Shown: positions 10,003 through 44,563, counted from the stretch's first letter. The stretch is DNA of 64,000 nucleotides from an uncultured Gammaproteobacteria bacterium (GCA_964497245.1 CAZCCC010000001.1:10297-74296); one strand, 5' to 3'. Made by a program: numbers and translations. The notes: generated by a model not told the origin, from the letters alone.

Positions 10003-10629
10003 ATGAATAGTGATTCTAATATTCTAAAACCGGAAGAATACTTGGGGGAGTCATATCTTAATAAAGAAAGATGGGCAAGTTATTCAATACAGGCAGATTT
10101 AGTTCATAATTTTTTTCCCTTAGGGGAAATTTTAGAGATTGGTATTGGAAATGGAATAATAACCGAAATTTTGAGGAAAAAATATAATTTAACCACAGTT
10201 GATATTAATCCTTGTCTAAATCCGGATGTAGTCTCTTCAGTAGATGATTTAAGTGGTTTACCCGAATATAAGTTTGATGCTTCTTTATGTTTTGAAGTTT
10301 TAGAACATCTGTCTTTTAAGGATTTTAGTAAATGTCTTTCTGAACTTCACCGAGTGACTAGGCACTATATTTTTTTATCTTTGCCATATTGGGGTTATAC
10401 TTTTGGCCTTAAACTAAAATTACCATTCCTTAGTGTTAAACAATTAAAATTTAAAATTTCTGGTTTAAAAAAACATAAATTTAATGGCCAGCATTATTGG
10501 GAAATCGGCAAAAAGGGATATTCTTTAAAAATGATAAAAAAAGAAATAAATAATAGTAGTTTAAAAATAATTAAGTCTTTTTGGGATATTGATGATCCAT
10601 ATCATTATTATTTTGTTTTGAAAAAATAA
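10003..10629 (+). CDS. Class I SAM-dependent methyltransferase-like protein
   Basis: 208 aa; glycine-rich motif I, LEIGIGNGIITE, then an acidic residue after beta-2 (TTVDIN). Confidence 0.5.
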   Translation: MNSDSNILKPEEYLGESYLNKERWASYSIQADLVHNFFPLGEILEIGIGNGIITEILRKKYNLTTVDINPCLNPDVVSSVDDLSGLPEYKFDASLCFEVLEHLSFKDFSKCLSELHRVTRHYIFLSLPYWGYTFGLKLKLPFLSVKQLKFKISGLKKHKFNGQHYWEIGKKGYSLKMIKKEINNSSLKIIKSFWDIDDPYHYYFVLKK

Positions 10630-10636
10630 GTTTCGT

Positions 10637-11794: not shown

Positions 11795-11805
11795 CAATAA
11801 AAAAT

Positions 11806-14249: not shown

Positions 14250-14279
14250 TTGACATCTTTTGACACCTTTTGGTATAAT
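14250..14279 (+). promoter_or_regulatory. Near-consensus sigma70-type promoter with duplicated -35-like box
   Basis: TTGACA (14250-14255), second TTGACA (14260-14265), TATAAT (14274-14279). The first box sits 18 bp upstream of the -10. Direct repeat ttgacaYcttt x2. The HTH gene starts 37 nt downstream. Confidence 0.5.
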
Positions 14280-14315: not shown

Positions 14316-14561
14316 ATGCCTGAAATAAATCCAAATGAAGTATATACTTCAAATGAAACCCAAGTGCTGCTAAAGGTTAGCTCAAGCACAATGAAGCGTC
14401 TTTTAAAAAAGGGATTAATTAGAGCCAATAAAGTTGGTGGGCAATATCGTATTTTAGGTAAAGAAATTTTACGTTTAATTTCGCCGGAATTGGAGCAAAA
14501 AGCAGTTGATGTTTATCAGGCAATAAAGAAAAACGCAGTTGATAAGATTAATAAGTGGTAA
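14316..14561 (+). CDS. Excisionase/MerR-like helix-turn-helix DNA-binding protein (HTH_17 type)
   Basis: 81 aa; VYTSNETQVLLKVSSSTMKRLLKKGLIRANKVGGQYRI matches the excisionase-family HTH pattern (ellgvs..tvyrlikkGelpa.kiGr.wri). Confidence 0.55.
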   Translation: MPEINPNEVYTSNETQVLLKVSSSTMKRLLKKGLIRANKVGGQYRILGKEILRLISPELEQKAVDVYQAIKKNAVDKINKW

Positions 14562-15331
14562 CTATGAAGGTAATATTTTATTGCCTTATTTTAATATTGG
14601 AGCGCCTTTTTCCAACAAGGGATATTGCGGTAATTTTATACCATCGGATTGACGACGACGGCAATTATTCAGTAAAACCCGAATTATTTGAAAAACAATT
14701 GAAACATCTTAAAAAACTTGACTATGTATCAATTTCTCCCGAAGATCTAAAAGGTTTTTTAGATGGCAAAATTAATTTGTCGAGAAGAAGCATTTTAATT
14801 ACTTTTGATGATGGTTTTAAGGATAATTACTCTATTGCTTACCCTTTGTTAAAAAAATATAATTTTACAGCAACCTTTTTTATTTCAGCCCGCCATATCG
14901 GAAAATTAAGCGATTATTCTGAAAAAATAAAAAATAAGGAAATGATGAGCTTCGCTGAATTGTCAGAATTAATTGAAAATGGTTTTACGGTTGCCAACCA
15001 TTTTTATTCCCACAGGAATTTAACCGAAATTTCTGATCAGGAAATTGAGTCTGAATTTAACCATGCATGTGAAATTTTAAGTAATATTGTAAATTCTGAA
15101 AATGATTTGAAATATGTAGCTTATCCGAGAAACCGAACCACGAGCAACGTTTTTGCCACTTTGAAAAAAGTTGGAGTAAAATTAGGTTTTGGTGGAAATC
15201 CTGCTTTAGTTAGTGGAATCGTCGATTATTTGAATATTCCGAGAATAGAAATATTCGGTAATAATTCAGTATTGAAATTCAGGGTTAAAATTTCTGGGCA
15301 TTATTACAGATTAATTAATTTATTTCGATAA
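14555..15331 (+). CDS. Polysaccharide deacetylase (NodB homology domain, CE4)
   Basis: 258 aa; ILITFDDGFKDNYSIAYPLLKKYNFTATFFI (TFDDG motif) and HFYSH. Confidence 0.7.
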   Translation: MVTMKVIFYCLILILERLFPTRDIAVILYHRIDDDGNYSVKPELFEKQLKHLKKLDYVSISPEDLKGFLDGKINLSRRSILITFDDGFKDNYSIAYPLLKKYNFTATFFISARHIGKLSDYSEKIKNKEMMSFAELSELIENGFTVANHFYSHRNLTEISDQEIESEFNHACEILSNIVNSENDLKYVAYPRNRTTSNVFATLKKVGVKLGFGGNPALVSGIVDYLNIPRIEIFGNNSVLKFRVKISGHYYRLINLFR

Positions 15332-15334
15332 GAT

Positions 15335-16099
15335 ATGGTGATTAAAAGGAATTTATTTCTTTTTAAAACTATCCGTTTTGTTTTGGAACCGTTGCCGGAA
15401 GAAATAGAAAAGCTTAAGAAAATATATTTAATGATAAACTGCTTATCCTATCAAGAATTATCTTTAGCCGGTTTTGAAAAAAGGCAAAAAAAAACCCCTT
15501 TGATTGATTTGACAAAAACACTACCTGAAATCTTTTTTGCCTTTCACGATACAACAAGAAATGAAATAAGAAGATCCGAAAAAAATTTTGATTTAAAGTT
15601 TGTTAATGATGATGGTAATTTTAAAGAAGCATATAAGCTTTATTGCCGGCATGAAACATCACAAAAGAGGATACCGGAAAGTAAAAACGAGTTTTCTGGT
15701 TGTAAGGTATTTTCGGCATATTTCAAGGATAAAATGATTTCCACCATTATATGTTTTACAGGTTCTAAATATTTGAGAGCAAAATCTATAAGTTCCTTGC
15801 GCATGGAGTCATTTGACAAAGAAATGCTGAGATTGATAAGTTTTTCCACCAGAAGATTGGTTTGGGAGATATGCAAATATGGTAAAGAAAATGATTATTT
15901 TGGTTTTGATTTGGGATCAATTAATTTAGTCGATTCAAATAAAGCAAGTATTGCTCAGTTTAAAAACTCTTTTGGTGGAAAAATTGTTGATGAATATTTA
16001 TACATTTATAAGTCAAAAATCTTTAAATTTTTTGAAAGAGTAGTTAAACTTAAAGTCTTAGCTTTAAAATTTTTATTAAAGAAAACTGATAATGAATAA
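15335..16099 (+). CDS. Hypothetical protein, possibly FemAB/Acetyltransf_6-like (GNAT fold) acyl/aminoacyl transferase
   Basis: 254 aa; C-terminal FKNSFGGKIV resembles the FemAB-family FK.kFGg motif. Weak. Confidence 0.3.
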   Translation: MVIKRNLFLFKTIRFVLEPLPEEIEKLKKIYLMINCLSYQELSLAGFEKRQKKTPLIDLTKTLPEIFFAFHDTTRNEIRRSEKNFDLKFVNDDGNFKEAYKLYCRHETSQKRIPESKNEFSGCKVFSAYFKDKMISTIICFTGSKYLRAKSISSLRMESFDKEMLRLISFSTRRLVWEICKYGKENDYFGFDLGSINLVDSNKASIAQFKNSFGGKIVDEYLYIYKSKIFKFFERVVKLKVLALKFLLKKTDNE

Positions 16100-17492
16100 T
16101 AATCTTAGAACAATTATTATTGTAGTTGAAGAAGGTTTTACTGCTCGTAGTCTTTTACGTTCAAATTTTTTGACAAAGATAAAGGAAAATTTTGAAAGAA
16201 TTGTTATTGTTGCTCCAAAAGCGAAACTCGATTATTATAATGAAAAATATTGTGACGATAGGATAATATTTGAACCGATGGATGAGGATAAAAATTCATT
16301 ATTTCAAAGAGCAATATTCAAAATTATAAAATACAGTATTCATTCTAATATAAATAAAATAAAACTTTTACGAACTTTATATAATAAAGATGGTAAAGTT
16401 AAATTTAACAAGGATTTTTTCTTTTTCCCTATTTTATTTTTATGTTGGTTCATGGGTCAATACCGTTGGTGGCGATTTTTTTTACGAATGATTTATTCAA
16501 CTACCCGTCTTGATGGAAGGTGTATTAAATTAATTGATAGGTATAAGCCAATGGTCGTGTTTGCTAATTATAGTGATATTAGTGTTAATAATTTTAATTT
16601 AAAATTGATTAGAGCATCTAAAAAAAGAAAAATAAAAACAGTTGGTAATATTTTTAGCTGGGATAATCTATTTAGTAAAGTTTTCATAACAGATTTTTCT
16701 GATTGTATTACTGTGCCGAACGGAATAGTTCGAGATGTAGCAGTTTTAATGGACGATGTCGATGCTAAAAAGATAATGGTAGTTGGTTTACCTCATTTCG
16801 ATGTTTATTTTAATAAGAATATAATAAAATCAAAGGAATATTTTTTTAGGGAAATTAATGCTGATATTAATAAGAAGTTAATTGTTTTTGCTATTGGTAT
16901 TAAAGATGCAATTAACGAAAATCATTTCTTGGATTTATTTAATAATCTAGCGAAAAGTTCTTTTTCTAATATACAATTCTATATTAGGCCATATCCCAAG
17001 GTTGGGCTTAAACAGAATATAGTTGATAAATTTAAAGGTAATGTTAATATTCTAATTGAAAATAGGCCAGCTAAAAATTGTGGAGTTTATTTTGAATTTT
17101 TTGATAATGATCCAGAGTTTTTAGCTAACTTATTATTACATTCAGATGTTTTAATTACTTATTATTCTACTATTATTATTGAATCATGCATTACTGACAC
17201 TCCAATAATAAATCTTAATTACTCCGGAGGATTGTCAAATAGCTACTATCATCAGATACAAAGATATTATTATTATGATCATATTAAACAAATTTTAGAT
17301 ACTGGTTGTGCTAAGTGGGTAAATAATGATAAAGAATTAGTTAATGTCTTGAAACAATATTTAGATAATCCATTGACAGACCGCAATGCTAGGAAAAAGA
17401 CAGTGATAGAACAGTTATCATATATTGATGGAAAATCAGCAGAAAGGTTATTTTTAGCTATTAGAAATACCATTAATAGTAAAAATGATTAG
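16092..17492 (+). CDS. Uncharacterized protein, paralog A of a tandem pair; possibly a distant TagF-like (CDP-glycerol glycerophosphotransferase, GT-B) relative
   Basis: 466 aa; shares with the next gene EGFTARSLLRSNFL, KTVGNIFSWDNLFSKVFIT, VVGLPHFDVYFN, YIRPYPK and LITYYSTIIIESCITDTPIINL (cf. TagF DYSS...D.PIIfy). Confidence 0.45.
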   Translation: MNNNLRTIIIVVEEGFTARSLLRSNFLTKIKENFERIVIVAPKAKLDYYNEKYCDDRIIFEPMDEDKNSLFQRAIFKIIKYSIHSNINKIKLLRTLYNKDGKVKFNKDFFFFPILFLCWFMGQYRWWRFFLRMIYSTTRLDGRCIKLIDRYKPMVVFANYSDISVNNFNLKLIRASKKRKIKTVGNIFSWDNLFSKVFITDFSDCITVPNGIVRDVAVLMDDVDAKKIMVVGLPHFDVYFNKNIIKSKEYFFREINADINKKLIVFAIGIKDAINENHFLDLFNNLAKSSFSNIQFYIRPYPKVGLKQNIVDKFKGNVNILIENRPAKNCGVYFEFFDNDPEFLANLLLHSDVLITYYSTIIIESCITDTPIINLNYSGGLSNSYYHQIQRYYYYDHIKQILDTGCAKWVNNDKELVNVLKQYLDNPLTDRNARKKTVIEQLSYIDGKSAERLFLAIRNTINSKND

Positions 17493-17494
17493 CT

Positions 17495-18889
17495 ATGATT
17501 GACAAAAATATTTTAATTATTATTGAAACTGGCTATGTTGCCCGCAGTCTTCTGCGTTCAAATTTTTTATTTAATATAAAAAGTGATTTTTCAAAAGTAA
17601 TTTTGGTTGTTCCAAGAGAAAAGGTTAATAGTTATAAAAAATTATATGGTTTTAATAATGTCATAATAGAATCAATAATTGATAGTTATCCTAGTATTTT
17701 TCAAAAAAAATTTAATATAATTTTAAAATATAGCATTCATGCAAAAGTGGCAAAATTAAAAATAATGAGGAAAATTTTCAAAGAGAGCGGGTTCAGGTTC
17801 AATATATGGATTCTTTATTTTCCACTAATATTTTTTTCTTATTTTTTAAGTCGATTTAAGCTTTGGCGTAAAATTTTAAGATTTATATATTCATTTTTTC
17901 CTGTCAATATTGATTGTATTAATCTTCTGAAAAAATATAATATTGACATTATTTATGCTAACTATACTAGCATAGGGGTAAGGGATTTTAATTTGAATAT
18001 ATTAAAAGCTGCAAAAAGTTTGGGGATCAAAACCGTAGGAAATATATTTAGTTGGGATAATTTATTTAGTAAAGTCTTTATAACAACACATACTGATTTT
18101 ATTACTGTCCCAAATCAACAGGTAGCCGAGGACGCTGTTAATATTGGTGATTTCAAAAGAGATTCGGTAAAAATTGTTGGCTTGCCTCATTTTGATTTTT
18201 ATTTTAATCACAAATTAATTCTCCCAAAGGATGATTTTTTTGATAAAATTGGTGCAAATCCAAAAAAAGATTTTTTCATTTTTGCTTTTGGGGCCGGTAA
18301 CCAAAGAGTTGATTATGAATATTTTTTAGACCTGCTTAATAAAATTTCAGAAAAATGTGGAGGAATTCAGTTTTATCTAAGGCCTTATCCAAAAAATTAT
18401 TACAATAAGAGTATTTTAAATAAATATTTTGGTAACAAAAATTTAATTTTTGAAAAAAGACCATTAGATAATTTAGAAAACCTTGGTAATAATTTTGAAT
18501 TTCCAGAAGAAGATAATCAGCTTCTTTTTAATTTACTTTATCATTCAAGGGGACTTATTTGTTTGACTTCTACACTTATGATCGAGGCTTGTTTGATGAA
18601 TACGCCGATAATTAATCTGCTGTATCTCGGGGATAAAAAGATAAATTATTATTATCGGCCGGAGAGACATTATGAATTAGACCATATAGTCAGAATTTTT
18701 AAAAGAAATTTTTCCATTAAAGTTAGGAATGATAACGAGCTAGTAAATGCCATTAATTCTTACCTTATGAATAAAGAGCTGCACCAAAAGGAAAGGAAAG
18801 AAACTGCGCTAGAACAAATGCATATTGTTAATGGTACCTCGGCAAGAGAATTAGCTGCTGTTCTTTCTAGTGTCGGGAGGGAAATATAA
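17495..18889 (+). CDS. Uncharacterized protein, paralog B of the tandem pair
   Basis: 464 aa; TGYVARSLLRSNFL, KTVGNIFSWDNLFSKVFIT (identical 19-mer), KIVGLPHFDFYFN, YLRPYPK. Confidence 0.45.
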   Translation: MIDKNILIIIETGYVARSLLRSNFLFNIKSDFSKVILVVPREKVNSYKKLYGFNNVIIESIIDSYPSIFQKKFNIILKYSIHAKVAKLKIMRKIFKESGFRFNIWILYFPLIFFSYFLSRFKLWRKILRFIYSFFPVNIDCINLLKKYNIDIIYANYTSIGVRDFNLNILKAAKSLGIKTVGNIFSWDNLFSKVFITTHTDFITVPNQQVAEDAVNIGDFKRDSVKIVGLPHFDFYFNHKLILPKDDFFDKIGANPKKDFFIFAFGAGNQRVDYEYFLDLLNKISEKCGGIQFYLRPYPKNYYNKSILNKYFGNKNLIFEKRPLDNLENLGNNFEFPEEDNQLLFNLLYHSRGLICLTSTLMIEACLMNTPIINLLYLGDKKINYYYRPERHYELDHIVRIFKRNFSIKVRNDNELVNAINSYLMNKELHQKERKETALEQMHIVNGTSARELAAVLSSVGREI

Positions 18890-18890
18890 T

Positions 18891-19847
18891 ATGAGACTTT
18901 TAATTGTCATGTATCATCATATAGATTCAGAAAAAAAATATAAATCAGGGATTTATCCGATTTCGATAGAAAGATTTACCAAGCAGCTTGATATTATTAG
19001 GAAAAAATATACTTTTATAAATGAAGATAAATTGGTTAAAATAATAGGGGGATCAGACAAATTGCCAGATATAAATTTTTGTTTTTTAACTTTTGATGAC
19101 AGTCTCCGCTGTCAATATGATAATGCCATACCTGTGCTGAAAGAAAGAAGAATTCCCGCAACTTTTTATATAAATAGTAAACCTTATCTTGAGAATAGTG
19201 CTTGCAGTGTCCATTTGATACATTGGCTTTTGACATTTCTCGATCCAAAGAAATTTTTGGAAGAAATTTATACCAATTATAATAAAATAACTGGTAATAT
19301 ATTAATCTTATCTGAAGCGGAAGAGAAAGAAGCATCAAAATTTAAGAGGTATGATAATAAAGACATCTCAAAATTAAAGTTTATTTTGAATAACTATTTA
19401 GATGTAGGAATATCGGAAATAATTATTGGTGGTATTTTCAAGAAATATTCAAAGATTGGAATGCTAGATTTTTGTAAAAAATTATATATGTCGGTGGGCA
19501 ATTTAAAAAATTTATTATCTGATAGTTTATTTAGTCTTGGAATGCATACAAATAGCCACATAAATATCAGTAAATTAAGCCAAGAATCTTTGAATAATGA
19601 ATATCAATTGAATTACAATTTTTTATGTAAAATTGGAGCAAATGTTCAAGGGATAGCATATCCTTACGGAACCTTTGGAGATAAAAAAGATTTTGATTCT
19701 ATCTTATCGGTTAATAAAAATATTGGGATTTTGTATGGGTTAACGACACTACGAAATATTAACATAAATTTAGATAGTCCATTTTATTTAAGTAGGTGTG
19801 ATACTAATGACATTAAGGGAGGAAAAAACCCAATAATAAGCATTTAA
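18891..19847 (+). CDS. Polysaccharide deacetylase-like protein (NodB/CE4 family)
   Basis: 318 aa from the ATG at 18891 (GGGAGG Shine-Dalgarno at 18875-18880; the ORF-track start at 18870 overlaps the upstream gene). CFLTFDDSLRCQYDNAIPVLKERRIPATFYI and LGMHTNSH. Confidence 0.6.
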   Translation: MRLLIVMYHHIDSEKKYKSGIYPISIERFTKQLDIIRKKYTFINEDKLVKIIGGSDKLPDINFCFLTFDDSLRCQYDNAIPVLKERRIPATFYINSKPYLENSACSVHLIHWLLTFLDPKKFLEEIYTNYNKITGNILILSEAEEKEASKFKRYDNKDISKLKFILNNYLDVGISEIIIGGIFKKYSKIGMLDFCKKLYMSVGNLKNLLSDSLFSLGMHTNSHINISKLSQESLNNEYQLNYNFLCKIGANVQGIAYPYGTFGDKKDFDSILSVNKNIGILYGLTTLRNININLDSPFYLSRCDTNDIKGGKNPIISI

Positions 19848-19852
19848 AGTAT

Positions 19853-20938
19853 ATGATTAAAAGTACAGAAGACATGTTAAATATATTAAAAAAAGGGATT
19901 TTTTTTATCGCTGAAATTGGTAAAAATTTTATTCAAACATCAGATGAAAAAACAATCAATGAATATTTAGAGAACGCTAAGAAATTAATCAAGGCGGCTA
20001 AAGAAAGCGGAGCTGATGCGGTAAAATTTCAAACTCATAATTTAGATGATGAATTTTTGAAAATTAATGTTATTTCGCCGCATTTTTCATCAGTTGATCG
20101 TTATAATTGGATAAAGAGGAATCAGCAGGCTACTCCTTTGGAGTTTTGGCGCGAACTTAAGGATTATTCTGAACAGCTAGACATTTTATTTTTTTCAACG
20201 CCGATGAGCCGCGGAGCAGCAGAAATTTTAAGTAAAATAGATGTTCCTGTTTGGAAAATTGGCTCCGGAGATATATTAGATTTTGTTATGTTGGATTACG
20301 TGGCGCAAACAGGTAAGCCGGTCATAATTTCTACCGGTATGAGCAGCTTGGAAGAGATTGATAAAGCAGTTAATTTTTTAAGGGAAAGAACGGATAAAAT
20401 AATCATTATGCACTGTGTTTCCAAATATCCTTGTCCGCCGGAAGAATTGAATTTAAAAACGATTAGATTTTTAGAACAAAGATATAATTTACCGGTTGGT
20501 TTCTCCAGTCATTCAATTAATGACAAAGATGCAGTCGCCGCCGCCATTGATTTAGGTGCTAAAGTAATTGAAAAACATTTTTCATTAAGCCGTGACCTAT
20601 GGGGCCCAGACCATAAGGTTTCTTTAACGCCCGATGAATTTAAATCAATGGTTAATATGGCTTATAGCGGCAAAAAATCGAATTTTACTGACTTAGGTTC
20701 AGAATATAAAATATTAAATAATGATGAAATGGTGTTCCGGCCGATATTTCGTAAATCTTTGGTTGCCGGTAAAAATATTAAAGCCGGAGAAACGATTTCT
20801 AAAGAAAAGATTTATTCGATGAGGCCGCATGGCTATATTAATGGTCTACCGTCCGAAGAGTATGAAAATGTTATAGGGAAAAAGGCGTTGAAGAATTTAA
20901 ATAAATATGATCCAATAACTATTAGTATAATAGAATAA
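19853..20938 (+). CDS. neuB: N-acetylneuraminate (nonulosonic acid) synthase, NeuB family with C-terminal SAF domain
   Basis: 361 aa; FIAEIGKNF...AAKESGADAVKFQTH (NeuB TIM-barrel domain), C-terminal SAF/antifreeze-like segment VAGKNIKAGETISKEKIYSMRP. Confidence 0.8.
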   Translation: MIKSTEDMLNILKKGIFFIAEIGKNFIQTSDEKTINEYLENAKKLIKAAKESGADAVKFQTHNLDDEFLKINVISPHFSSVDRYNWIKRNQQATPLEFWRELKDYSEQLDILFFSTPMSRGAAEILSKIDVPVWKIGSGDILDFVMLDYVAQTGKPVIISTGMSSLEEIDKAVNFLRERTDKIIIMHCVSKYPCPPEELNLKTIRFLEQRYNLPVGFSSHSINDKDAVAAAIDLGAKVIEKHFSLSRDLWGPDHKVSLTPDEFKSMVNMAYSGKKSNFTDLGSEYKILNNDEMVFRPIFRKSLVAGKNIKAGETISKEKIYSMRPHGYINGLPSEEYENVIGKKALKNLNKYDPITISIIE

Positions 20939-20943
20939 AAAAT

Positions 20944-22107
20944 ATGGAAAAACGTAAAATTTGTTTTGTGATTACAAGTCAAATTCATTATGCTAGAAAC
21001 AAGTTGATTATTCAGGAATTAAAAAAACGTGATGATGTAGAATTGCAGTTGGTAATTGCCGGTTCCGCGATATTAAAACAGTATGGCAACGTTGAAAAAC
21101 TCTTAAAAGATGACGGAATTGAATTTCAGAGCAAGGCAACCATAATCGTTGAAGGCGGTAATCCTGTAGCCATGGCTAAAACAGCCGGGTTAGGCTTGAT
21201 TGAATTTGCTTCAATCTTTGAAAATTTAAATCCCGATATCGTATTGCTTAGAGGTGATCGCTATGAAGTTCTTTCGGCTGCGATTGCCGCCGCTTATATG
21301 AATATAACTTTGGCTCATATAGAGGGTGGTGATATCAGCGGTAGCATTGATGAGAGTGTAAGACATGCAATTACTAAATTGTCCAATATACATTTTACAA
21401 CCAATGCCGAATCTAAAGGCCGCGTTATACAAATGGGGGAAGATGAAAAATATGTCTTTGATTTTGGCAGCCCTGATGTTGAATTTGCCGCTATTAATAA
21501 TTTTTCAGTCACGAATGAAGAAATCAATCAAATTGGAGTAGGCATGAAAGAGTTTAATATTAATAATAAATTCTTGATTGTAATACAACATCCGGTTACT
21601 AGCGAAATAAATGAAAATGGAAAAAATATTGAAGAGACGCTAAAAGCGATTTCTGATTTTAAAATGCCGACTCTTTGGTTTTGGCCCAATATTGATGCCG
21701 GCAATGATGAAGTCTCCAATGCCATTAGAAAATTCAGGGAGAATACAGATATTGACAGCTATACCCATTTTATAAAGTATCTTGCCCCGGATAAATTTTT
21801 ATCATTACTTAGAAAAACCTCATGTTTGATCGGCAATTCATCGGCTGGAATTAAAGAATCTTCTTATTTTGGCACTCCTGTTGTAAATATTGGCAGCCGG
21901 CAGAACGGAAGGCTAAAGGGCAATAACTTGTTAGATGTCCAATATGATTCTGAACAGATAAAGAAAGCAATCAAGAAGCAATTAGATAATGGTTATTATC
22001 CTCAAGATAATATATATTTTAAAGGTAATTGCAGCAAACAAATTTCAGATACTTTGGCAAAAATCAAACTGTATACCCAGAAAAAATTTAATGATAAAAT
22101 TAAGTAG
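20944..22107 (+). CDS. neuC: UDP-N-acetylglucosamine 2-epimerase (hydrolysing), NeuC type
   Basis: 387 aa; LLRGDRYEVLSAAIAAAYMNITLAHIEGGDISGSIDESVRHAITKLSNIHFTT is the Epimerase_2 family core; position between neuB and neuA. Confidence 0.75.
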   Translation: MEKRKICFVITSQIHYARNKLIIQELKKRDDVELQLVIAGSAILKQYGNVEKLLKDDGIEFQSKATIIVEGGNPVAMAKTAGLGLIEFASIFENLNPDIVLLRGDRYEVLSAAIAAAYMNITLAHIEGGDISGSIDESVRHAITKLSNIHFTTNAESKGRVIQMGEDEKYVFDFGSPDVEFAAINNFSVTNEEINQIGVGMKEFNINNKFLIVIQHPVTSEINENGKNIEETLKAISDFKMPTLWFWPNIDAGNDEVSNAIRKFRENTDIDSYTHFIKYLAPDKFLSLLRKTSCLIGNSSAGIKESSYFGTPVVNIGSRQNGRLKGNNLLDVQYDSEQIKKAIKKQLDNGYYPQDNIYFKGNCSKQISDTLAKIKLYTQKKFNDKIK

Positions 22108-22113
22108 CGTTTT

Positions 22114-22839
22114 ATGAAAAAAAGATTAAATATTTTAGGCATAATTCCGGCCCGCGGTGGATCCAAGGGGATACCTAAGAAAAATATAAAAATTTTAGGT
22201 GATAAGCCGTTGATTTATTATACGATTAAAAGCGCAAAAAGAAGCGTTTATATAACTGACCTGATTGTGTCTACTGACGACTTGGAGATCGCAAAAATAG
22301 CTGAATCCTGCGGCGCTAATGTTCCTTTTATTCGGCCGAAGGAATTGGCTTTGAATGAAACTCCAATGCTTCCTGTTTTAAGGCATGCGGTTGATTTTAT
22401 GGAAAAAAACAAAAATATTATTTTTGATTATATAGTAATCCTGCAACCGACATCACCTTTTAGACTGCCGGAAGATATAGATAAAACAATAGAAGTAATT
22501 ATTGAAAAAGGCGCCGATAGTGCTGTCAGTCTGGTGGAAGTGGAAAGCCAGTTTCATCCAATGAAAATGAAAAAGTTCGAGGAGCAGAGGGTATTGTCTT
22601 ATACTATTGATGAGCCGGAAGGAATAAATCGTCAGGATTTGCCAAAGGTATATAGGCGAAGCAGTGCAGTTTATGTTCAAAAACGAGATTTGATCGTTAA
22701 AAAGAATCAGTTATATGGTGATTATATTGTCGGACATATTGTGCCGGCAGAAAGATATATTGATATTGATAATGAATTTGATTGGTTAAAGGCAGAATAT
22801 ATGTTAAAAAAATTAAAAGATAGAGGATATAATTATTAA
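22114..22839 (+). CDS. neuA: N-acylneuraminate cytidylyltransferase (CMP-sialic acid synthetase)
   Basis: 241 aa; LGIIPARGGSKGIPKKNIKILGDKPLIYYTI (cf. AIIPARSGSKGLPRKN), CTP_transf_3 family. Confidence 0.8.
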   Translation: MKKRLNILGIIPARGGSKGIPKKNIKILGDKPLIYYTIKSAKRSVYITDLIVSTDDLEIAKIAESCGANVPFIRPKELALNETPMLPVLRHAVDFMEKNKNIIFDYIVILQPTSPFRLPEDIDKTIEVIIEKGADSAVSLVEVESQFHPMKMKKFEEQRVLSYTIDEPEGINRQDLPKVYRRSSAVYVQKRDLIVKKNQLYGDYIVGHIVPAERYIDIDNEFDWLKAEYMLKKLKDRGYNY

Positions 22840-22853
22840 GTAATAAAATTAAT

Positions 22854-23708
22854 ATGGAAGAAAAAAAATTGTCAGATTTTAATTTTGATTTTGAAGCTTT
22901 AGTGAGTTGCCCTTTTTGCAGTAGCCAAGTTATGATACCTAATGGCAGGGTAAAATGGTATAGTTTTGACTTCTGGTATGTTTTTTGTCCATCTTGCGGA
23001 TTAAAATATATGAATCCAAGACCGACAATCCAATCGTATAAAGATTTCTATAAAAAATTTTTTTGGGAACAGAAAATAACCAATACCGGTTTTCATCAAG
23101 AGGGTCAGATGTGGGGGCTTGATAAATATAAATTTGATAATGAAAAAATTTGGGATGCAAAAGATGGAAAAAAAAATCGGATTGAAAAGCAAAAAGCGCA
23201 AAGAATAAAAACTATAATCCCGGTGATTGAAAAAAGTATTAGTATCAACAGCAATTCAGATATTCTTGAAATTGGTTGCGGTTTTGGAGTCACTTTGAAC
23301 GAATTAAGTTTGAAATATAATTGTAAATCTTACGGAATTGAGCCGTCGGAAGAAGCCAGAAAAACTATTTTAGAATATGGCAAGATTAATTTGATTGGCT
23401 ATTATGCTGAGGAAATTGAAGAAATATCAACAAAAGATATAAAGTTTGATGTTATTATATTTTCTCATTCTTTGGAAAATACTGTTGACCCGATAAACAT
23501 AATAAAATACGCAAAATTGTGTTTAAAGAATTCAGGGATCATTTATATTCAAACTCCAAATTTATTGACTTTTGATCAAATGAACCCTTATCATCCTTTC
23601 ATTTTCTCGCAGAATTCTGTTTTGCATTTGGCTGAAAAAAACAATTTAAATTGCAGTATTGAATCTGAGACTATAGATAAAATGTTAGTAACAGTTTTTA
23701 AGAATTAA
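22854..23708 (+). CDS. SAM-dependent methyltransferase with N-terminal Cys4 zinc ribbon
   Basis: 284 aa; CPFCSS...CPSCG zinc ribbon; motif I ILEIGCGFGVTLNELS. Confidence 0.55.
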   Translation: MEEKKLSDFNFDFEALVSCPFCSSQVMIPNGRVKWYSFDFWYVFCPSCGLKYMNPRPTIQSYKDFYKKFFWEQKITNTGFHQEGQMWGLDKYKFDNEKIWDAKDGKKNRIEKQKAQRIKTIIPVIEKSISINSNSDILEIGCGFGVTLNELSLKYNCKSYGIEPSEEARKTILEYGKINLIGYYAEEIEEISTKDIKFDVIIFSHSLENTVDPINIIKYAKLCLKNSGIIYIQTPNLLTFDQMNPYHPFIFSQNSVLHLAEKNNLNCSIESETIDKMLVTVFKN

Positions 23709-23737
23709 TTTTTGGTTTTTAGTATTTTAAAAGAAAT

Positions 23738-24421
23738 ATGAGGACAATAAAAATAGGTAAAATAGATGAACAAATCAAAAGTTTATATGATTTTTTTAAA
23801 TTAAAAGAAGGTTCTGAACACATATCTTGCCTCGGTGCTCTACAGGGATTAAATAAAATACTTCAGGATTTAAAACCAAAAAATATTCTTGAGTTTGGTG
23901 GTGGAATAGGGGCATTAAGTTACTTTTGTATGAATAATACAAATGCAAATCTTACTATATATGAAGATAATAGTTTTTGTCTAAATCAGCTTGAAAAAAA
24001 TTTAAGCGCTTTTAAAGAAAGGTATTCAATAATTTCAGATTATAATAATTTTAAGCCACTTCCTTATAAAAATTACGAATTAATTTTGGCGGATGGAGGA
24101 CCATATAATTTAATTAGTGAAATAGTAAAAAATATTAGAGGAATTAGAATAATATTTTTTGAGGGTAGAAGAATACCAATGCAAGTACTTTTTAGAAAAG
24201 CATTGAAGAAAAAATATATATTCAAAACTATAAAATATGAGTATGAAAATAATAACAAAAATACTAAGTGTGCTTATGTTATTTATTGTCAGCCGTGTAA
24301 AAATGTTTTTTTAAGAAAAATAAATTATTATTATCAAGAAATTATTTCATTGATTGATTTTATCAGGATAAGGGGATTTATGAATTATATTAAGTATGAT
24401 TTTTTATCCAAAATTTTATAA
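23738..24421 (+). CDS. Hypothetical protein, possible class I methyltransferase fold
   Basis: 227 aa; NILEFGGGIGALSYF glycine-rich loop, later LILADGGP. Weak. Confidence 0.35.
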   Translation: MRTIKIGKIDEQIKSLYDFFKLKEGSEHISCLGALQGLNKILQDLKPKNILEFGGGIGALSYFCMNNTNANLTIYEDNSFCLNQLEKNLSAFKERYSIISDYNNFKPLPYKNYELILADGGPYNLISEIVKNIRGIRIIFFEGRRIPMQVLFRKALKKKYIFKTIKYEYENNNKNTKCAYVIYCQPCKNVFLRKINYYYQEIISLIDFIRIRGFMNYIKYDFLSKIL

Positions 24422-24445
24422 TTTTAACTAAATTGTGGTTTTTTT

Positions 24446-25708
24446 ATGGTAAAAATCTTATATAATAAAATATTAAGTATAATAAGTCGTGTTGAGAAAA
24501 TTGTAAAAGTTGATTTAATATATTATTTAAAAGGTAGTTTTTGGATGAATATGGAACAAGGAGTCTCAACTCTTACCGCTATTATTTTGTCGATTGTATT
24601 TGCTAATTTGCTTTCTAAGGAAACTTATGGGTCATATTCATATATTTTAACAATTGCCAATCTTTTGGCATTTACTACACTGACCAGTATGAATGAAGCA
24701 GTAACAAGATCAGTGGCAAAAGGAAATAATGATTCAGTAATTTCAGCTTTATATACCAAAATTAGATTTGGTTTTTTTGGCAGTATAATAAGTTTAGCGA
24801 TAGCGCTTTATTATTTTATAAACAATTCTTTAGTTTTGGCGATTTGTTTTTTATTTGTTTCATTATTTATTCCTTTTTGGCCTTCGCTCAGTATTTACTC
24901 TGCTTTTTTTAATGGGAAAAGAAATTTTGGACTCTCATCAATTATTGGTGCTGCTAGAAATATTATTACTTCCTTTTTTTTAGTTATGGTAATATTTTTT
25001 ACAAGAAATATTTTTTTGATTATTTTAACATATTTTTTATCATTTTTATTATTTGATTTTTTTTATTTAAAAAAAGTTATTAATAAATTTAAGTTGACAA
25101 ATATTCGTAATCCAGAAACAATTTCTTATGGAAAATATTTAAGTTTCGTAAGGATAATTGGTCTTATTAATAGTAATATTGATAAAATATTAATTTGGAA
25201 TCTGCTTGGTCCGGTTCAAGTGGCAGTTTATTCAATTGCACTGGCGCCAGTTGATAAAATTAAGGGTACAATTGGTAATATCAAATCATTAGCTTTCCCA
25301 AAATTCAGCTTAGCTCCACAGAATCAAATGCAGAAAACGTTAATGGGAAAAATGTTAAAGCTTTTTTTTATTTTAATTCCTGTTGTAGCGACTTATATTA
25401 TATTCATACCTTTTCTTTTTAAAATTTTTTACCCTAAATATTTAGATTCAATTATTTATTCCCAAATACTTTCACTAACTATTTTAGCTACGCCTGAACA
25501 GCTTTTTACCGTTTATTTCAAGGCGCATAAGATGAAAAAAGAAATAGTAATTATGAGCTCGGTTGTACCCTTGATAAATATACTAATAATGGTATTTGCC
25601 GGCGTATTTTTTGGTTTAATTGGTTTGGTAATTGGCAGAGTGCTAGGATTTATTTCTTATTTTCCAGTTGCTTTTTATTTGTTTAAATTTCAGAAATATA
25701 AAGATTAA
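24446..25708 (+). CDS. Oligosaccharide flippase (Wzx-like / polysaccharide biosynthesis protein, MOP superfamily)
   Basis: 420 aa, about 12 hydrophobic segments throughout, no soluble domain; the true start may be an internal Met (e.g. MNMEQG). Confidence 0.55.
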   Translation: MVKILYNKILSIISRVEKIVKVDLIYYLKGSFWMNMEQGVSTLTAIILSIVFANLLSKETYGSYSYILTIANLLAFTTLTSMNEAVTRSVAKGNNDSVISALYTKIRFGFFGSIISLAIALYYFINNSLVLAICFLFVSLFIPFWPSLSIYSAFFNGKRNFGLSSIIGAARNIITSFFLVMVIFFTRNIFLIILTYFLSFLLFDFFYLKKVINKFKLTNIRNPETISYGKYLSFVRIIGLINSNIDKILIWNLLGPVQVAVYSIALAPVDKIKGTIGNIKSLAFPKFSLAPQNQMQKTLMGKMLKLFFILIPVVATYIIFIPFLFKIFYPKYLDSIIYSQILSLTILATPEQLFTVYFKAHKMKKEIVIMSSVVPLINILIMVFAGVFFGLIGLVIGRVLGFISYFPVAFYLFKFQKYKD

Positions 25709-25718
25709 TTATTATAAA

Positions 25719-26639
25719 ATGTTTAAAAAAATAGGACCAGATTTTTTAATAACCGGGCTTGAAAGAAGTGGCACTCACTGGGTTGCCGGTTTACTGAATG
25801 CGCATCCGGAGATTTCTTGTTTTCCGGCCGATTATTTTGATAAAGGTTTTGGTGAATATAATAGAGAAATTATTGGGGAAGTCCATTTATTTAATACTTT
25901 GGCAAGTCTTGAATTGAATACCGAAGATAAGCATACCCGGCCCATATCTGGATATTTAACCAAGCATAATTTGATTTTTGCCGATTTGGCAGCGTTAGAG
26001 GGCAAGGTGCCTAAGGAAGAATTATATAATATGTTTATAAAAAGGTATAATGAGATTTGTGAAGAGAACCGCTATGGCAAAAAAATGGTTGGTGAATCAA
26101 CTCCAGCCTATGTTTTTCACTTAGATTTTATTGATTCATTTTATCCAAATATAAAAAAGCTTTGTATAATCAGAGATCCGAAGGATAAAATAGTATCTTG
26201 GCATTTTAGCAAACTAAGAAAAGGTCAGAAGACCGAGGTTGTTATTACCGATGAATTTATCAAAGAATATTGCGAGAAAACGATTAAAAAAGAATATGAA
26301 AGCCTGCTTGATTATAAAGGCAATATTTACTGTTTTACTTATGAGAGTTTGGCTGAAAATCAAAACGGGGTTTTATGTGATATCCTTTCTTATTTAGATG
26401 TTGCCATTAATGCTGATATTATTAGTCATATGATTAAAGAAGGTTCATTTAAGGAAATGACAGCTAAGGGGAATATTACTGGTGGAAGAGATAATGGACA
26501 AGAAGAGCTACAGAGTCCTTATCGTAAGGGTGTAGTTGGTGACTGGGTAAATCATATGACTAAAAAACAGGCTGAATTGGTGGATGCTATTGTTGGTGAG
26601 GTGAGAAAAATGACTTTTAATAAATATAAAATTTACTAA
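25719..26639 (+). CDS. PAPS-dependent sulfotransferase
   Basis: 306 aa from the ATG at 25719 (the ORF-track start at 25668 overlaps the flippase gene). 5'-PSB loop ITGLERSGTHW (cf. PKSGTTW); 3'-PB motif IIRDPKDKIVSWHFS (cf. RNPKDxxVS). Confidence 0.65.
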   Translation: MFKKIGPDFLITGLERSGTHWVAGLLNAHPEISCFPADYFDKGFGEYNREIIGEVHLFNTLASLELNTEDKHTRPISGYLTKHNLIFADLAALEGKVPKEELYNMFIKRYNEICEENRYGKKMVGESTPAYVFHLDFIDSFYPNIKKLCIIRDPKDKIVSWHFSKLRKGQKTEVVITDEFIKEYCEKTIKKEYESLLDYKGNIYCFTYESLAENQNGVLCDILSYLDVAINADIISHMIKEGSFKEMTAKGNITGGRDNGQEELQSPYRKGVVGDWVNHMTKKQAELVDAIVGEVRKMTFNKYKIY

Positions 26640-26647
26640 GACTACTT

Positions 26648-29437
26648 ATGTTCAAGAAAAATATTAAGATTATTGTTACCTTGGGTCCGTCAACTAAAAC
26701 CATATCAGATTTAAGAAAAATTAAAGATAGGGGCGTAAGTTTTGTTCGTATTAATATGTCGCATTCCAGTATTGATGATCTTAAATATTTTATTAATTTG
26801 GCAAAAACTGTTGATATCCCATTTATTATTGACACTGAAGGTTCTCAAATCAGGACAGGTGATCTAATTGAAAGCAGTATTAATCTGAATGAGAATGACG
26901 AGATAAAGATATATAAAGAGCAAATAGTTGGTGATATCCACAAAATATCAATTAAGCCAAGTTATGTAATAGACCAACTTAAAATTGGTGATATATTGTA
27001 TGTAGATTTTAATGCTTTAATTTTAGAAATTTCAGATATTTCAACTATTTCTGTAGGCTATATTACGGCCAAGGCTATCAATAAAGGCAGTCTGGGACGA
27101 AATAAAGGCGTAGCAATAGATTCATCTGATAATACTAAGTTTGATTTGCCAGTTCTGTCGGAAAAAGATTATCAATCAATCAAGGTAGGTTTAGAAGAGG
27201 GTATTAGTCATATTGCGGCATCATTTATGAGATCTGAGCAGTTTGTTAAAGATGTTAAGATGGCTACGAAAGGCAAGATGAAAATTATTTCAAAAATTGA
27301 GTGCCTTGATGCACTAAATAATTTAGATGAGATTATTAAAGAGTCTGATTTTTTGTTAATTGACAGAGGAGATTTAAGTAAAGAAATTCCAATAGAAAAA
27401 ATTCCATTTTTACAAAAAATAATTCTAAGCAAATCTCGTAATTATAATAAGGAAACTTTTATTGCAACTAATTTATTAGAGACCATGGTTGAAAAGAGTA
27501 ATCCAACCAGAGCGGAAGTTAATGATGTAATTAATGCTATTTTAGATGGTGCTTCTGGTTTAACCCTTTCATCTGAAACAGCAATAGGTAAATATCCAAT
27601 AGCCTGTATTAATATGCTAAATAAATTGATCAAGCAAACAACCTTATTTAATGATATAACTTATCAAAAATCCGGTGATCGGTTAGCTAAAAAGTTATTT
27701 AAGTCAAATTATTTTTTAAGTACAGATTCATCATCTTCTCTAATTTCTCCTCACGGCGGCACCTTAATAAATAGGATTTCTGATGGATCGTTTAGTAAGC
27801 AATATTTAGATTCTTTAAAAAAAATTGTAGTAAGTCAAAATATTTCAATGGATATTGAGCAGATAGCAGTTGGTACTTTTAGCCCCCTGGAAGGTTTTAT
27901 GATAAAACGTGATTTTAATAGTGTTCTCAATAAAATGAGACTTGTAAACGGAGCAGTATGGACAATTCCCATAGTTTTGGATGTCTCAAAAGAACATGCT
28001 GACAATATATCTTTAGGTGAAGATATTATGCTAATTGGTGATGGCGGCTTGATAGCATTAATCAATGTAGAGGATAAATACTCATTTAATAAAAAAGAAG
28101 TTTCTTTAAAACTTTATGGTACTACTAGTAATAAACATCCCGGTGTTTTGTGGGTGAATAGCCTAGATCAAATATTACTGGGAGGGAAAATTACTCTTCT
28201 CAAAAGAAGAGAATCAGAGTTTCAGGAATATATTCTGACTCCCAGACAAACAAGAAGGTTGTTTGAAGAAAAAAATTGGTCTAGGGTTGTGGGATTTCAT
28301 ACTAGAAATGTTATTCACCGCAGTCATGAATTTATTCAAATGAAAGCTTTGGAGGTTGAAAATTGTGATGGGCTTTTTGTTCATCCAGTAATTGGCAAAA
28401 AGAAGCCTGGTGATTTTTATGCCAAATACATTATTGAAAGTTATAAGCTTATGGTTAAAAATTTTTACCCAGCCGATAAGGTATTCTTTGCCACTTTGCC
28501 GACTTATTCTAGATATGCCGGTCCCAGAGAAGCAGTTTTTACCGCTTTGTGCCGCAAGAACTTCGGTTGCAGCCATTTTATTGTTGGTCGTGACCACACT
28601 GGAGTTGGTAATTTTTACAATCCTACGGCGTCTCATGATATTTTTGATAAATTTCCTGATTTAGGCATGAAAATAATTAAATTTAATAAGATATTTTACT
28701 CAAAAAAATATGACGGTTATATTCATGAGACTGAGGATTCTGATCATTTGGAAGAAGATAAGCTTCATATAAGCGGCACAGAAGCTAGAAAAATGTTTGA
28801 GGAAGGGGATATTCCGCCATGCTGGTTTATGCGTCCGGAAATATCACAATTTATTTCAAATGCAATTTGCAACAAAGAAGAAGTTTTTATTAAAAAAGAG
28901 TCAGTTGAAAAAGGAATAGTTCTTTGGTTTACTGGTTTAAGTGGCTCAGGAAAAACCACGATTGCCGGTGAATTAGAAAATCGATTAAAAACTCTTAGAA
29001 AGAAAGTTGTGATAATTGATGGCGATACCGTAAGGTCTACAATTAATAAAAATCTTGGTTTTTCCCGAGAAGACATAAAAGAAAATAATTTAATAATTGC
29101 AAAATTAGCTGAGGAAGCAGCTTTTAAAAATGATTTTGTGGTTGTACCAATTATTTCTCCTTACCAAGAAGATAGAAACATGGCTCGCTCATTAATTGGC
29201 TCTCGATTTTTTGAAATTTTTATAAATTGTTCTATTGATAAATGTATTAAAAGAGATCCCAAGGGTTTTTATAAGAAAGCTTTAGAAGGAAAAATCAATA
29301 ATTTTATAGGGCTTAGTAAAAGTAATCCGTATGAGATTCCAATAAATCCGGATTTAGAAATAAAAACTGATATTCATAGTCTTGATGAAAATATTCTTTT
29401 AATTTTAGATTTTTTAAAATCTAAGGCCTTATTGTAA
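26648..29437 (+). CDS. Tri-domain protein: pyruvate-kinase-like catalytic (A+B) domains, ATP sulfurylase, and APS kinase (PAPS synthase with an N-terminal PK module)
   Basis: 929 aa. Residues 1-340 align along their whole length with pyruvate kinase: KIIVTLGP, VRINMSHSS, IIDTEGSQIRTG, IISKIECLDAL...LLIDRGDLSKEIP, ATNLLETMVEKSNPTRAEVNDVINAILDGASGLTLSSETAIGKYP. Residues about 360-750 are ATP sulfurylase: LISPHGGTLINRI, GFHTRNVIHRSHEF, VGRDHTGVG. Residues about 760-929 are APS kinase: LWFTGLSGSGKTTIA, CIKRDPKGFYKKALEGKINNFIGLSKSNPYE. Confidence 0.8.
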   Translation: MFKKNIKIIVTLGPSTKTISDLRKIKDRGVSFVRINMSHSSIDDLKYFINLAKTVDIPFIIDTEGSQIRTGDLIESSINLNENDEIKIYKEQIVGDIHKISIKPSYVIDQLKIGDILYVDFNALILEISDISTISVGYITAKAINKGSLGRNKGVAIDSSDNTKFDLPVLSEKDYQSIKVGLEEGISHIAASFMRSEQFVKDVKMATKGKMKIISKIECLDALNNLDEIIKESDFLLIDRGDLSKEIPIEKIPFLQKIILSKSRNYNKETFIATNLLETMVEKSNPTRAEVNDVINAILDGASGLTLSSETAIGKYPIACINMLNKLIKQTTLFNDITYQKSGDRLAKKLFKSNYFLSTDSSSSLISPHGGTLINRISDGSFSKQYLDSLKKIVVSQNISMDIEQIAVGTFSPLEGFMIKRDFNSVLNKMRLVNGAVWTIPIVLDVSKEHADNISLGEDIMLIGDGGLIALINVEDKYSFNKKEVSLKLYGTTSNKHPGVLWVNSLDQILLGGKITLLKRRESEFQEYILTPRQTRRLFEEKNWSRVVGFHTRNVIHRSHEFIQMKALEVENCDGLFVHPVIGKKKPGDFYAKYIIESYKLMVKNFYPADKVFFATLPTYSRYAGPREAVFTALCRKNFGCSHFIVGRDHTGVGNFYNPTASHDIFDKFPDLGMKIIKFNKIFYSKKYDGYIHETEDSDHLEEDKLHISGTEARKMFEEGDIPPCWFMRPEISQFISNAICNKEEVFIKKESVEKGIVLWFTGLSGSGKTTIAGELENRLKTLRKKVVIIDGDTVRSTINKNLGFSREDIKENNLIIAKLAEEAAFKNDFVVVPIISPYQEDRNMARSLIGSRFFEIFINCSIDKCIKRDPKGFYKKALEGKINNFIGLSKSNPYEIPINPDLEIKTDIHSLDENILLILDFLKSKALL

Positions 29438-29448
29438 ATGATTTAATT

Positions 29449-44562: not shown

Positions 44563-44563
44563 G

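Follow-up and report, generated by a model that had tools for sequence, protein, structure and literature searches.

Nonulosonic acid (NulO) pathways are common in bacteria and archaea. The described systems closest to the locus reported here are the N-acetylneuraminic acid (Neu5Ac) pathways of Escherichia coli K1, O104 and O145, strains whose capsule or O-antigen contains this sialic acid, and of Neisseria meningitidis; the vertebrate epimerase GNE; the legionaminic acid (Leg) clusters Acinetobacter lga, E. coli O108 and Bacillus subtilis sps; and, for sugar transfer, the BFO_1060 family of Tannerella forsythia. We analysed a 64-kb stretch of DNA filed under an uncultured Gammaproteobacteria bacterium (GCA_964497245.1 CAZCCC010000001.1:10297-74296), hereafter the window, in which open reading frames of at least 100 amino acids with a gene-like look were scanned with Pfam and NCBIfam. 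The window is AT-rich, with a GC content of about 31%, and nearly every gene lies on the + strand. It carries three adjacent genes, neuB, neuC and neuA. As in the E. coli and N. meningitidis pathways, the same three enzyme families stand side by side in a surface polysaccharide locus, without a dehydratase or an aminotransferase. We propose, with a probability of about 0.6, that the three genes encode a working de novo pathway to a CMP-activated, neuraminic-type nonulosonic acid, leading from N-acetylmannosamine (ManNAc) to Neu5Ac. The genes are the following:

19853-20938, + strand: neuB, nonulosonic acid synthase of the NeuB family with a SAF domain, 361 amino acids (Pfam, NCBIfam and PDB matches)
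20944-22107, + strand: neuC, hydrolysing UDP-sugar 2-epimerase, GNE-like, 387 amino acids (NCBIfam, PDB and neighbour-joining tree)
22114-22839, + strand: neuA, CMP-nonulosonate synthetase (cytidylyltransferase), 241 amino acids, without an esterase domain (Pfam and PDB matches)

All three are complete open reading frames that start with ATG, lie on one strand and are separated by 5-6 bp. Their family matches are far beyond chance: NeuB matches the Pfam families NeuB (E = 1.3e-71) and SAF (E = 4e-6), NeuC matches Epimerase_2 (E = 9.9e-69) and NeuA matches CTP_transf_3 (E = 8.3e-23). An intact, adjacent neuB-neuC-neuA set at 19853-22839 had been proposed from the nucleotide sequence (the original prediction), and the complete reading frames and strong family matches bear this out. 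Among solved structures, NeuA resembles the CMP-NeuAc synthetase of Vibrio cholerae (112 bits), mouse CMAS (80 bits) and N. meningitidis CSS (71.5 bits). NeuB resembles N. meningitidis NeuB (163 bits), Campylobacter jejuni PseI (162 bits) and SpsE of B. subtilis (1VLI, 152 bits), the last being a Leg-pathway synthase (PMC7439481).

The locus also differs from the E. coli and N. meningitidis systems in several respects. The gene order is B-C-A, whereas it is (D)-B-A-C in those species, and NeuB is only about 33% identical to their synthases and clusters apart from them. NeuC is of the GNE-like subtype, whereas E. coli NeuC is of the HxHGG subtype. NeuA lacks the C-terminal domain, an O-acetylesterase domain, of the 418-residue E. 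coli enzyme. The window has neither a NeuD acetyltransferase nor a GT38/GT52 sialyltransferase.

The closest protein relatives point to the lineage of the organism. The best 120 database matches of NeuB are 56-68% identical to it, and the named ones come nearly all from metagenome-assembled genomes of Patescibacteria, Parcubacteria or Sungbacteria; identity to a large Patescibacteria clade is 57-68%. A second protein of the window, in which a pyruvate kinase barrel is fused to a 3'-phosphoadenosine 5'-phosphosulfate (PAPS) synthase, gave a similar picture: all 120 of its best matches have the kinase-sulfurylase architecture, with or without the adenosine 5'-phosphosulfate (APS) kinase domain, and the named ones are nearly all from Patescibacteria. 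An origin of the window in the candidate phyla radiation (CPR, Patescibacteria) is thus well supported by the relatives of these two proteins, in agreement with the CPR-type cell suggested by the original prediction. In a plasmid collection, which served as a source of pseudaminic acid (Pse) and archaeal reference loci, the best NeuB match reached merely 37.6% identity.

In the proposed pathway, NeuC would epimerise and hydrolyse UDP-N-acetylglucosamine (UDP-GlcNAc) to ManNAc, NeuB would convert ManNAc, its probable substrate, and phosphoenolpyruvate (PEP) to Neu5Ac, and NeuA would form CMP-Neu5Ac from Neu5Ac and CTP. Two tandem TagB-like glycosyltransferases of the GT-B fold might then move the CMP-sugar onto a lipid-linked surface glycan built by Wzx/Wzy. 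This glycan, possibly the sialic acid itself, might finally be modified by CE4 deacetylases, methyltransferases and a PAPS-dependent sulfotransferase.

Evidence on the first step comes from NeuC. Our reference set comprised the Neu5Ac loci of E. coli K1, O104 and O145, the E. coli O108 locus with its Leg-type gene set, six Acinetobacter Leg loci, 21 further loci with a LegG, found by scanning genomes with the crystallised A. baumannii LegG as seed, a Klebsiella plasmid that carries all of pseBCFGI, a Halorussus locus and PDB sequences. The O-antigen sugar of E. coli O108 is 8-epilegionaminic acid. NeuC scores 372.6 bits against the hydrolysing NCBIfam model NeuC_NnaA (TIGR03568, cut-off 235.9) and 59.8 bits against the non-hydrolysing wecB model. 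A WecB identity is thereby ruled out, nor does the protein group with WecB, so that the hydrolysing epimerase named in the original prediction stands. The best PDB match is the epimerase domain of human GNE (4ZHT, 227.8 bits, 34% identity), followed by A. baumannii LegG (191.8 bits). NeuC aligns with GNE at D112, E134 and D143, the catalytic residues of the latter, and like GNE has E134 within an HIEGG motif and a GG(D/E)xS-G(S/T)-ID loop that is one residue shorter before D143. These data show that NeuC is a hydrolysing enzyme of the GNE-like kind. Unlike the vertebrate protein it has no fused ManNAc kinase domain; a bacterial route through free ManNAc, and not ManNAc-6-phosphate, is therefore expected.

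In a neighbour-joining tree (200 bootstraps, as for all trees here), NeuC and its CPR orthologs group with the enzymes of Flavobacterium terrisoli (locus L031) and Rhizobium sp. WL3 (L005) with a bootstrap of 96, and next with human GNE (70.5). No aminotransferase is present in the loci of these tree neighbours. In contrast, all 17 LegG sequences encoded next to a LegC lie across a split with a support of 97.5. We derived a LegG signature from these 17 LegC-context sequences, there being no published rule: besides the HxHGG motif and the extra loop residue, it comprises A141, T218 and G283 (GNE numbering), present in 17/17, and S289, present in 16/17. The window NeuC has S, I, P and G at these positions, that is, none of the four. 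Position 141, which is polar in the window enzyme as in GNE, is A or G in 23 of 23 epimerases with an aminotransferase in their context. The four Neu5Ac references have N or T there, and five aminotransferase-free relatives have N, S or T. Because NeuC groups with GNE and with enzymes from aminotransferase-free loci and lacks the LegG residues, UDP-GlcNAc is favoured as its substrate, and hence ManNAc and Neu5Ac as the predicted products of the route.

The upstream enzymes of the Leg and Pse routes were then sought throughout the 64 kb. Seeds for LegB, LegC, LegH, PtmE, PseB, PseC and PseG returned nothing relevant by tblastn and blastp: the Acinetobacter LegC and LegH seeds had no match at E <= 1, and those for LegB and PtmE matched solely RmlB and RmlA. 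No protein exceeded 145 bits against the LegB model TIGR04180, whose cut-off is 475. Pfam and NCBIfam scans of the gene-like reading frames likewise revealed no dehydratase, aminotransferase or N-acetyltransferase of these routes; the short-chain dehydrogenases/reductases (SDRs) of the window are RmlB, RmlD and a weak dTDP-glucose-dehydratase-like protein, none near the LegB or PseB models. The same seeds find their targets in all Leg and Pse reference loci; the extra genes are present, for example, in the Acinetobacter and E. coli O108 Leg loci and in the Pse locus of the Klebsiella plasmid. With the E. coli Neu5Ac loci and the flanking regions of the CPR relatives L001-L004 they gave no match. 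The Leg clusters resemble our locus in that NeuC-, NeuB- and NeuA-like genes lie side by side, but they always include LegB, LegC and LegH and usually PtmE, all four of which the window lacks, as it lacks the LegG residues. The absence of PseB/PseC-type genes, a point of the original prediction, therefore extends over the whole window.

NeuB is consistent with a functional synthase. Residues K53, Q55, K129, S132, Y186, S213, H215, E234, H236, D247 and R314 (N. meningitidis numbering) are kept throughout the CPR NeuB clade, and S154 is kept in 14 of its 15 members. The sole change at the checked positions is a conservative one, E134D, found in all 15 members of this Patescibacteria clade and also in half of the examined LegI sequences. 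A glutamate-to-aspartate change at this position is reported to be typical of archaeal and eukaryotic synthases (PMC8208679). Columns that discriminate Neu from Leg synthases number just three; they are weak, and none is decisive.

Several results weigh against the Neu5Ac assignment. NeuB scores 277 bits against the N-acetylneuraminate synthase model NeuB_NnaB (TIGR03569), below its cut-off of 399.65, and nearly as much, 257 bits, against PseI, again below the cut-off (340). Since it falls below both equivalog cut-offs, its subtype is not assigned by the NCBIfam models. In a tree of 46 sequences (Kimura distances), with references from E. coli K1, O104 and O145, N. meningitidis, the Acinetobacter and E. 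coli O108 Leg loci, and C. jejuni and Klebsiella for Pse, NeuB falls in a long-branched clade made up of Patescibacteria alone, which no supported node ties to the Neu5Ac, Leg or Pse synthases. The deep nodes have less than 50% support, and polyphyly is seen among the verified Neu5Ac synthases themselves, with the N. meningitidis and E. coli enzymes in different parts of the tree; for these reasons NeuB cannot be typed by the tree. Some of its orthologs are named 'N,N'-diacetyllegionaminate synthase' by the automatic, KEGG Orthology (KO)-based annotation of the Joint Genome Institute (JGI). The best NCBIfam model of NeuA is PseF (154 bits, cut-off 205.7), by BLAST it is somewhat closer to LegF-type enzymes from Acinetobacter (37-40% identity) than to E. 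coli NeuA (31.6%), and its tree does not resolve the Neu, Leg and Pse subtypes. All trees contain few experimentally verified references. L042, the closest of the syntenic relatives examined, has genes for a DegT aminotransferase and an SDR about 8 kb downstream of its trio. Leg and Pse upstream enzymes are absent within the 64 kb, and dehydratase and aminotransferase genes could lie elsewhere in the genome. Finally, no sialyltransferase of the GT38, GT42, GT52 or GT80 families was detected among the scanned reading frames of the window. The genuine Neu5Ac-type sugar of the original prediction is thus favoured by the GNE-like NeuC and by the Leg/Pse genes missing from the window, but it draws no support from the unaffiliated NeuB clade, from the scores below the equivalog cut-off or from the indecisive NeuA tree. 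Likewise, the phylogeny proposed there gave no robust grouping of NeuB with Leg or Pse synthases, but it typed neither NeuB nor NeuA.

Among the other explanations, it is conceivable but unlikely that the product of the Patescibacteria-specific NeuB clade is another, perhaps novel nonulosonic acid, neither plain Neu5Ac nor Leg or Pse. Examples would be a Neu derivative that is de-N-acylated by the adjacent CE4 enzyme and then re-substituted or methylated, or a sugar derived from a ManNAc analogue. The separate long-branch clade of NeuB and its scores below both cut-offs are compatible with this idea, although such divergence may merely reflect a fast-evolving CPR lineage, and the checked substrate- and metal-binding positions are canonical. 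In CPR loci a CE4 deacetylase is repeatedly found next to neuB or close by, and the trio always has flanking methyltransferases, which would fit a modified sugar; the usual targets of CE4 enzymes are, however, polymers and not free or CMP-linked sugars. Up to three NeuB paralogs occur in some CPR loci, implying several NulO types, but the GNE-like NeuC of the window argues for an ordinary ManNAc precursor.

Also improbable is the synthesis of Leg or one of its stereoisomers (8-epilegionaminic acid, 8eLeg; 4-epilegionaminic acid, 4eLeg; acinetaminic acid, Aci). On this reading NeuC would be a LegG with UDP- or GDP-2,4-diacetamido-2,4,6-trideoxyglucose as its substrate, and the dehydratase, aminotransferase and acetyltransferase genes would lie outside the window. 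Epimerases of the NeuC type do occur in both routes, which the NCBIfam NeuC model fails to tell apart, a Leg-locus epimerase being annotated neuC; however, our NeuC lies outside the LegG clade (the 97.5 split) and has neither the four signature residues nor the LegG loop length. The lack of affiliation of NeuB with verified Neu5Ac synthases, the slightly closer LegF-type relatives of NeuA, the KO-based ortholog names, the DegT and SDR genes of L042 and the E134D change shared with half of LegI all speak for Leg, but a dedicated glycan locus of 64 kb holds no homolog of LegB, LegC, LegH or PtmE. Moreover, L040, a CPR relative that does have an aminotransferase module (DegT, PIG-L, Hexapep and SDR genes), has a second NeuC beside it, and in another CPR locus, L003, Hexapep, WbqC and PIG-L genes accompany a second NeuB. 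Since these second NulO modules come with their own extra NeuC or NeuB, the comparison argues that the trio is a self-sufficient, separate pathway.

Pseudaminic acid is excluded in practice and very improbable as a product, because a NeuC-type epimerase stands in place of PseG, the UDP-sugar hydrolase of the Pse route, and PseB, PseC, PseH and PseG are all absent from the window: although NeuB scores almost equally with the PseI model (257 bits), C. jejuni PseI (162 bits) and the NeuB references, and the best model of NeuA is PseF, both model scores are below the equivalog cut-offs and the verified PseI and PseF form separate clades (bootstraps of 95.5 and 100) that do not contain the window proteins.

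The search for a GT38/42/52/80 enzyme among the glycosyltransferases, as suggested in the original prediction, yielded only two TagB-like candidates upstream of the trio:

16092-17492, + strand: TagB/Glyphos_transf-like GT-B glycosyltransferase, candidate CMP-NulO transferase (Pfam Glyphos_transf, E = 6e-14)
17495-18889, + strand: tandem paralog, second candidate NulO transferase (42% identity, blastp E = 1e-119 to 16092-17492)

The paralog has no Pfam or NCBIfam match of its own. The first protein matches the NCBIfam hidden Markov model BFO_1060 (NF046086) over profile positions 40-364 with 44 bits (E = 1.4e-11), far below the cut-off of 200, and five of the seven members of this TagB-like family match the same model. 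BFO_1060 is one of the T. forsythia homologs whose sequences were compared in an alignment with Tanf_01245 and TFUB4_00887, the Pse and Leg transferases counted in the same family; deletion of these two abolishes the nonulosonic acid (PMC5420450). Homologs of the window proteins lie beside NulO genes in L001 (two copies), in the Flavobacterium locus L031 (17304-18701) and in the Rhizobium locus L005 (16064-17458), and a Glyphos_transf gene is also found near NulO genes in L040 and in the P0050 contig. Linkage to NulO genes is seen in four lineages. The window proteins resemble the BFO_1060 family in their TagB/Glyphos_transf-like domain, in the model match below cut-off and in having homologs beside NulO genes in several phyla, but differ from it in their low score and generic fold. 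Indeed, an AlphaFold (AF2) model of the TagB-like protein (predicted local distance difference test score, pLDDT, of 88.8) has a generic GT-B fold, and Foldseek against the PDB retrieved generic GT-B enzymes such as MshA and UDP-GlcNAc 2-epimerases with TM-scores of about 0.55. Neither TagF nor a sialyltransferase was among the 50 best PDB matches listed, and a sequence profile search gave no significant PDB relative for the family. The two tandem enzymes are therefore put forward, by analogy, as candidate CMP-NulO transferases; CDP-glycerol or some other substrate activated by CMP or CDP is an equally possible donor.

The trio and the candidate transferases lie within about 16 kb of tightly packed genes on the same strand (14316-30252), whose end meets a convergent phosphoglycosyl transferase gene. 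This arrangement probably corresponds to a single transcription unit. The best promoter-like site of the window is in the 128-bp gap before its first gene, one of the few intergenic gaps, and is probably the start of the unit; the total number of promoter-like sites in the window is not above that of shuffled controls. The remaining features of the unit, and the genes that follow it, are:

14250-14279, + strand: promoter-like site, best in the window (TTGACA, 18 nt, TATAAT; 12/12 matches with TG; a consensus match only)
14316-14561, + strand: small HTH_17 protein, first gene of the unit (Pfam HTH_17, E = 1.2e-9)
14555-15331, + strand: CE4 polysaccharide deacetylase with an N-terminal hydrophobic segment (Pfam Polysacc_deac_1, E = 8.7e-23)
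18870-19847, + strand: CE4-type polysaccharide deacetylase directly upstream of neuB (Pfam Polysacc_deac_1, E = 3.5e-13)
22854-23708, + strand: S-adenosylmethionine (SAM)-dependent methyltransferase (several Pfam methyltransferase families, Methyltransf_23 E = 1.7e-14)
23738-24421, + strand: SAM-dependent methyltransferase (weak MTS match, E = 8e-4, below the Pfam cut-off)
24446-25708, + strand: Wzx-type flippase (Pfam Polysacc_synt, E = 1.9e-13)
25668-26639, + strand: PAPS-dependent sulfotransferase (Pfam Sulfotransfer_1, E = 1.1e-22)
26648-29437, + strand: fusion protein of 929 amino acids with a pyruvate kinase barrel, PUA_2, ATP sulfurylase and APS kinase (PAPS synthase) (Pfam)
29449-30252, + strand: CysQ-like 3'(2'),5'-bisphosphate nucleotidase (removal of 3'-phosphoadenosine 5'-phosphate), last gene of the unit (Pfam Inositol_P, E = 9e-48)
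30268-31656, - strand: initiating polyprenyl-phosphate glycosyl-phosphotransferase, convergent with the unit (Pfam Bac_transf, E = 8e-68)
31751-34447, + strand: Wzy_C/O-antigen-ligase-like membrane protein with TPR repeats (Pfam Wzy_C, E = 1.9e-13, and TPR families; syntenic in L042)

The neuB-neuC-neuA genes are kept together in the CPR relatives examined, which variously keep the deacetylase, the methyltransferases and either a TagB-like glycosyltransferase or a Capsule_synth (KpsS/KpsC-like) protein. The HTH_17 gene has the same leading position in L041 and L042. The first CE4 deacetylase has a transmembrane-like segment at residues 1-20, and a gene of no recognised family (254 amino acids) separates it from the tandem GT-B genes. 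The second one shows TFDD, HTNSH and AYPYG motifs. It holds the same position next to neuB in the CPR loci L003 and L004, lies one methyltransferase away in L042 and in the P0050 contig, and has a weak homolog in the Halorussus NulO locus. Every CPR relative examined has methyltransferases flanking the trio. In L001 (12959-13912) and L040 (12934-13863), the gene immediately after neuA encodes a D-2-hydroxyacid dehydrogenase; in the P0050 contig this gene lies one methyltransferase further on, while the window has its two methyltransferases at that position. A possible role of the dehydrogenase is to provide an acyl or ether substituent, for example glyceroyl or lactyl. The 21-kb locus L001 (JGI Ga0208904_1000096) contains three NeuB paralogs, two NeuC, three CTP_transf_3 proteins and two TagB-like glycosyltransferases, together with one Capsule_synth protein and one radical SAM enzyme of the B12-binding kind, and no aminotransferase. 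Its gene content suggests that several distinct nonulosonic or ulosonic acids may be made in one CPR cell.

The end of the unit is devoted to sulfation. The fusion protein matches the Pfam families PK (E = 1.9e-71), PUA_2 (E = 2.7e-43), ATP-sulfurylase (E = 2.3e-76) and APS_kinase (E = 3.1e-49) and has no PK_C domain. Its homologs, which PGAP names just 'sulfate adenylyltransferase', are always in glycan loci beside a sulfotransferase. We found no paper describing a fusion of pyruvate kinase and PAPS synthase. One idea is that the kinase domain makes ATP from PEP and ADP to drive PAPS synthesis. With the flanking sulfotransferase and the CysQ-like protein, which scores 171 bits against the NCBIfam CysQ model (cut-off 228.8), the fusion makes up a complete sulfation module. 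This module is kept in the CPR glycan loci L042, L043 and L044 and in the P0050 contig, and it adjoins the neuBCA trio in three CPR loci. Such conservation implies that sulfated surface glycans are likely to occur in Patescibacteria.

Most of the remaining window is also given to glycan biosynthesis. The convergent glycosyl-phosphotransferase scores 391 bits against the NCBIfam model EPS_sugtrans, above the cut-off. A subtilase with FG-GAP repeats (34449-36689, + strand), syntenic in L042, directly follows the Wzy_C/TPR gene, and a PEGA-domain protein with weak beta-propeller matches is encoded at 56895-58265 (- strand); both are possibly surface- or S-layer-associated. The regions 941-13813 and 37237-56767 (+ strand) consist almost throughout of glycan biosynthesis genes. 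In addition to eight GT4/GT1-family and four GT2 glycosyltransferases, they encode a complete rmlABCD set, a TviB-like UDP-GlcNAc 6-dehydrogenase, an AsnB-type amidotransferase, and two each of GtrA-like proteins and PMT_2 (ArnT-like) transferases. In a genome of the small size usual for CPR, glycan genes would take up an unusually large share of the coding capacity. Near the end of the window, a 512-residue protein (61219-62757, + strand) has a recognisable domain only at its C-terminus, a PEP-utilising mobile domain (residues 437-506), its N-terminal 400 residues having no Pfam match. An EPSP (5-enolpyruvylshikimate-3-phosphate)-synthase-family gene (434 amino acids, 58354-59658), which we read as MurA, lies about 1.5 kb upstream of it.

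A further, doubtful extension of the Neu5Ac reading is that 14316-30252 as a whole may serve, in Patescibacteria specifically, as a cassette for making a sialoglycan of unusual chemistry, in which a Neu-type sugar made by this NeuB clade would be transferred by the TagB-like, BFO_1060-related enzymes in place of classical sialyltransferases and combined with de-N-acetylation, methylation and sulfation. If this were true, CPR cells would bear a sulfated, methylated, sialic-acid-bearing surface polymer, with its sulfation powered by a kinase-fused PAPS synthase that regenerates ATP from PEP. To our knowledge, no such polymer has been described for bacteria.

The trio itself is an ordinary kind of pathway, with the NeuC/NeuB/NeuA logic of E. 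coli and Neisseria, in an under-studied lineage. Sialic acid production genes have been mentioned in passing for CPR (Peregrinibacteria) (PMC4736985), and in the literature searched we found nothing on CPR/Patescibacteria and nonulosonic acids beyond this remark. What sets the locus apart are four features: the GNE-like epimerase, the lineage-specific synthase clade, the short NeuA and the non-classical candidate transferases. Given the earlier mention and the wide occurrence of such pathways, the presence of the three genes is thus unsurprising. The value of our findings is descriptive: a large Patescibacteria clade has a conserved neuB-neuC-neuA module with a GNE-like epimerase in big surface-glycan loci, often beside a sulfation module and without a classical sialyltransferase. 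The predicted acidic, possibly sulfated coat of sialic-acid type could guide lectin or antibody labelling, surveys of CPR enrichments by high-performance liquid chromatography after labelling with 1,2-diamino-4,5-methylenedioxybenzene (DMB-HPLC) and the search for CMP-NulO transferases. In these cells, which are ultra-small and depend on a host, contact with the host is likely to run through the surface glycan.

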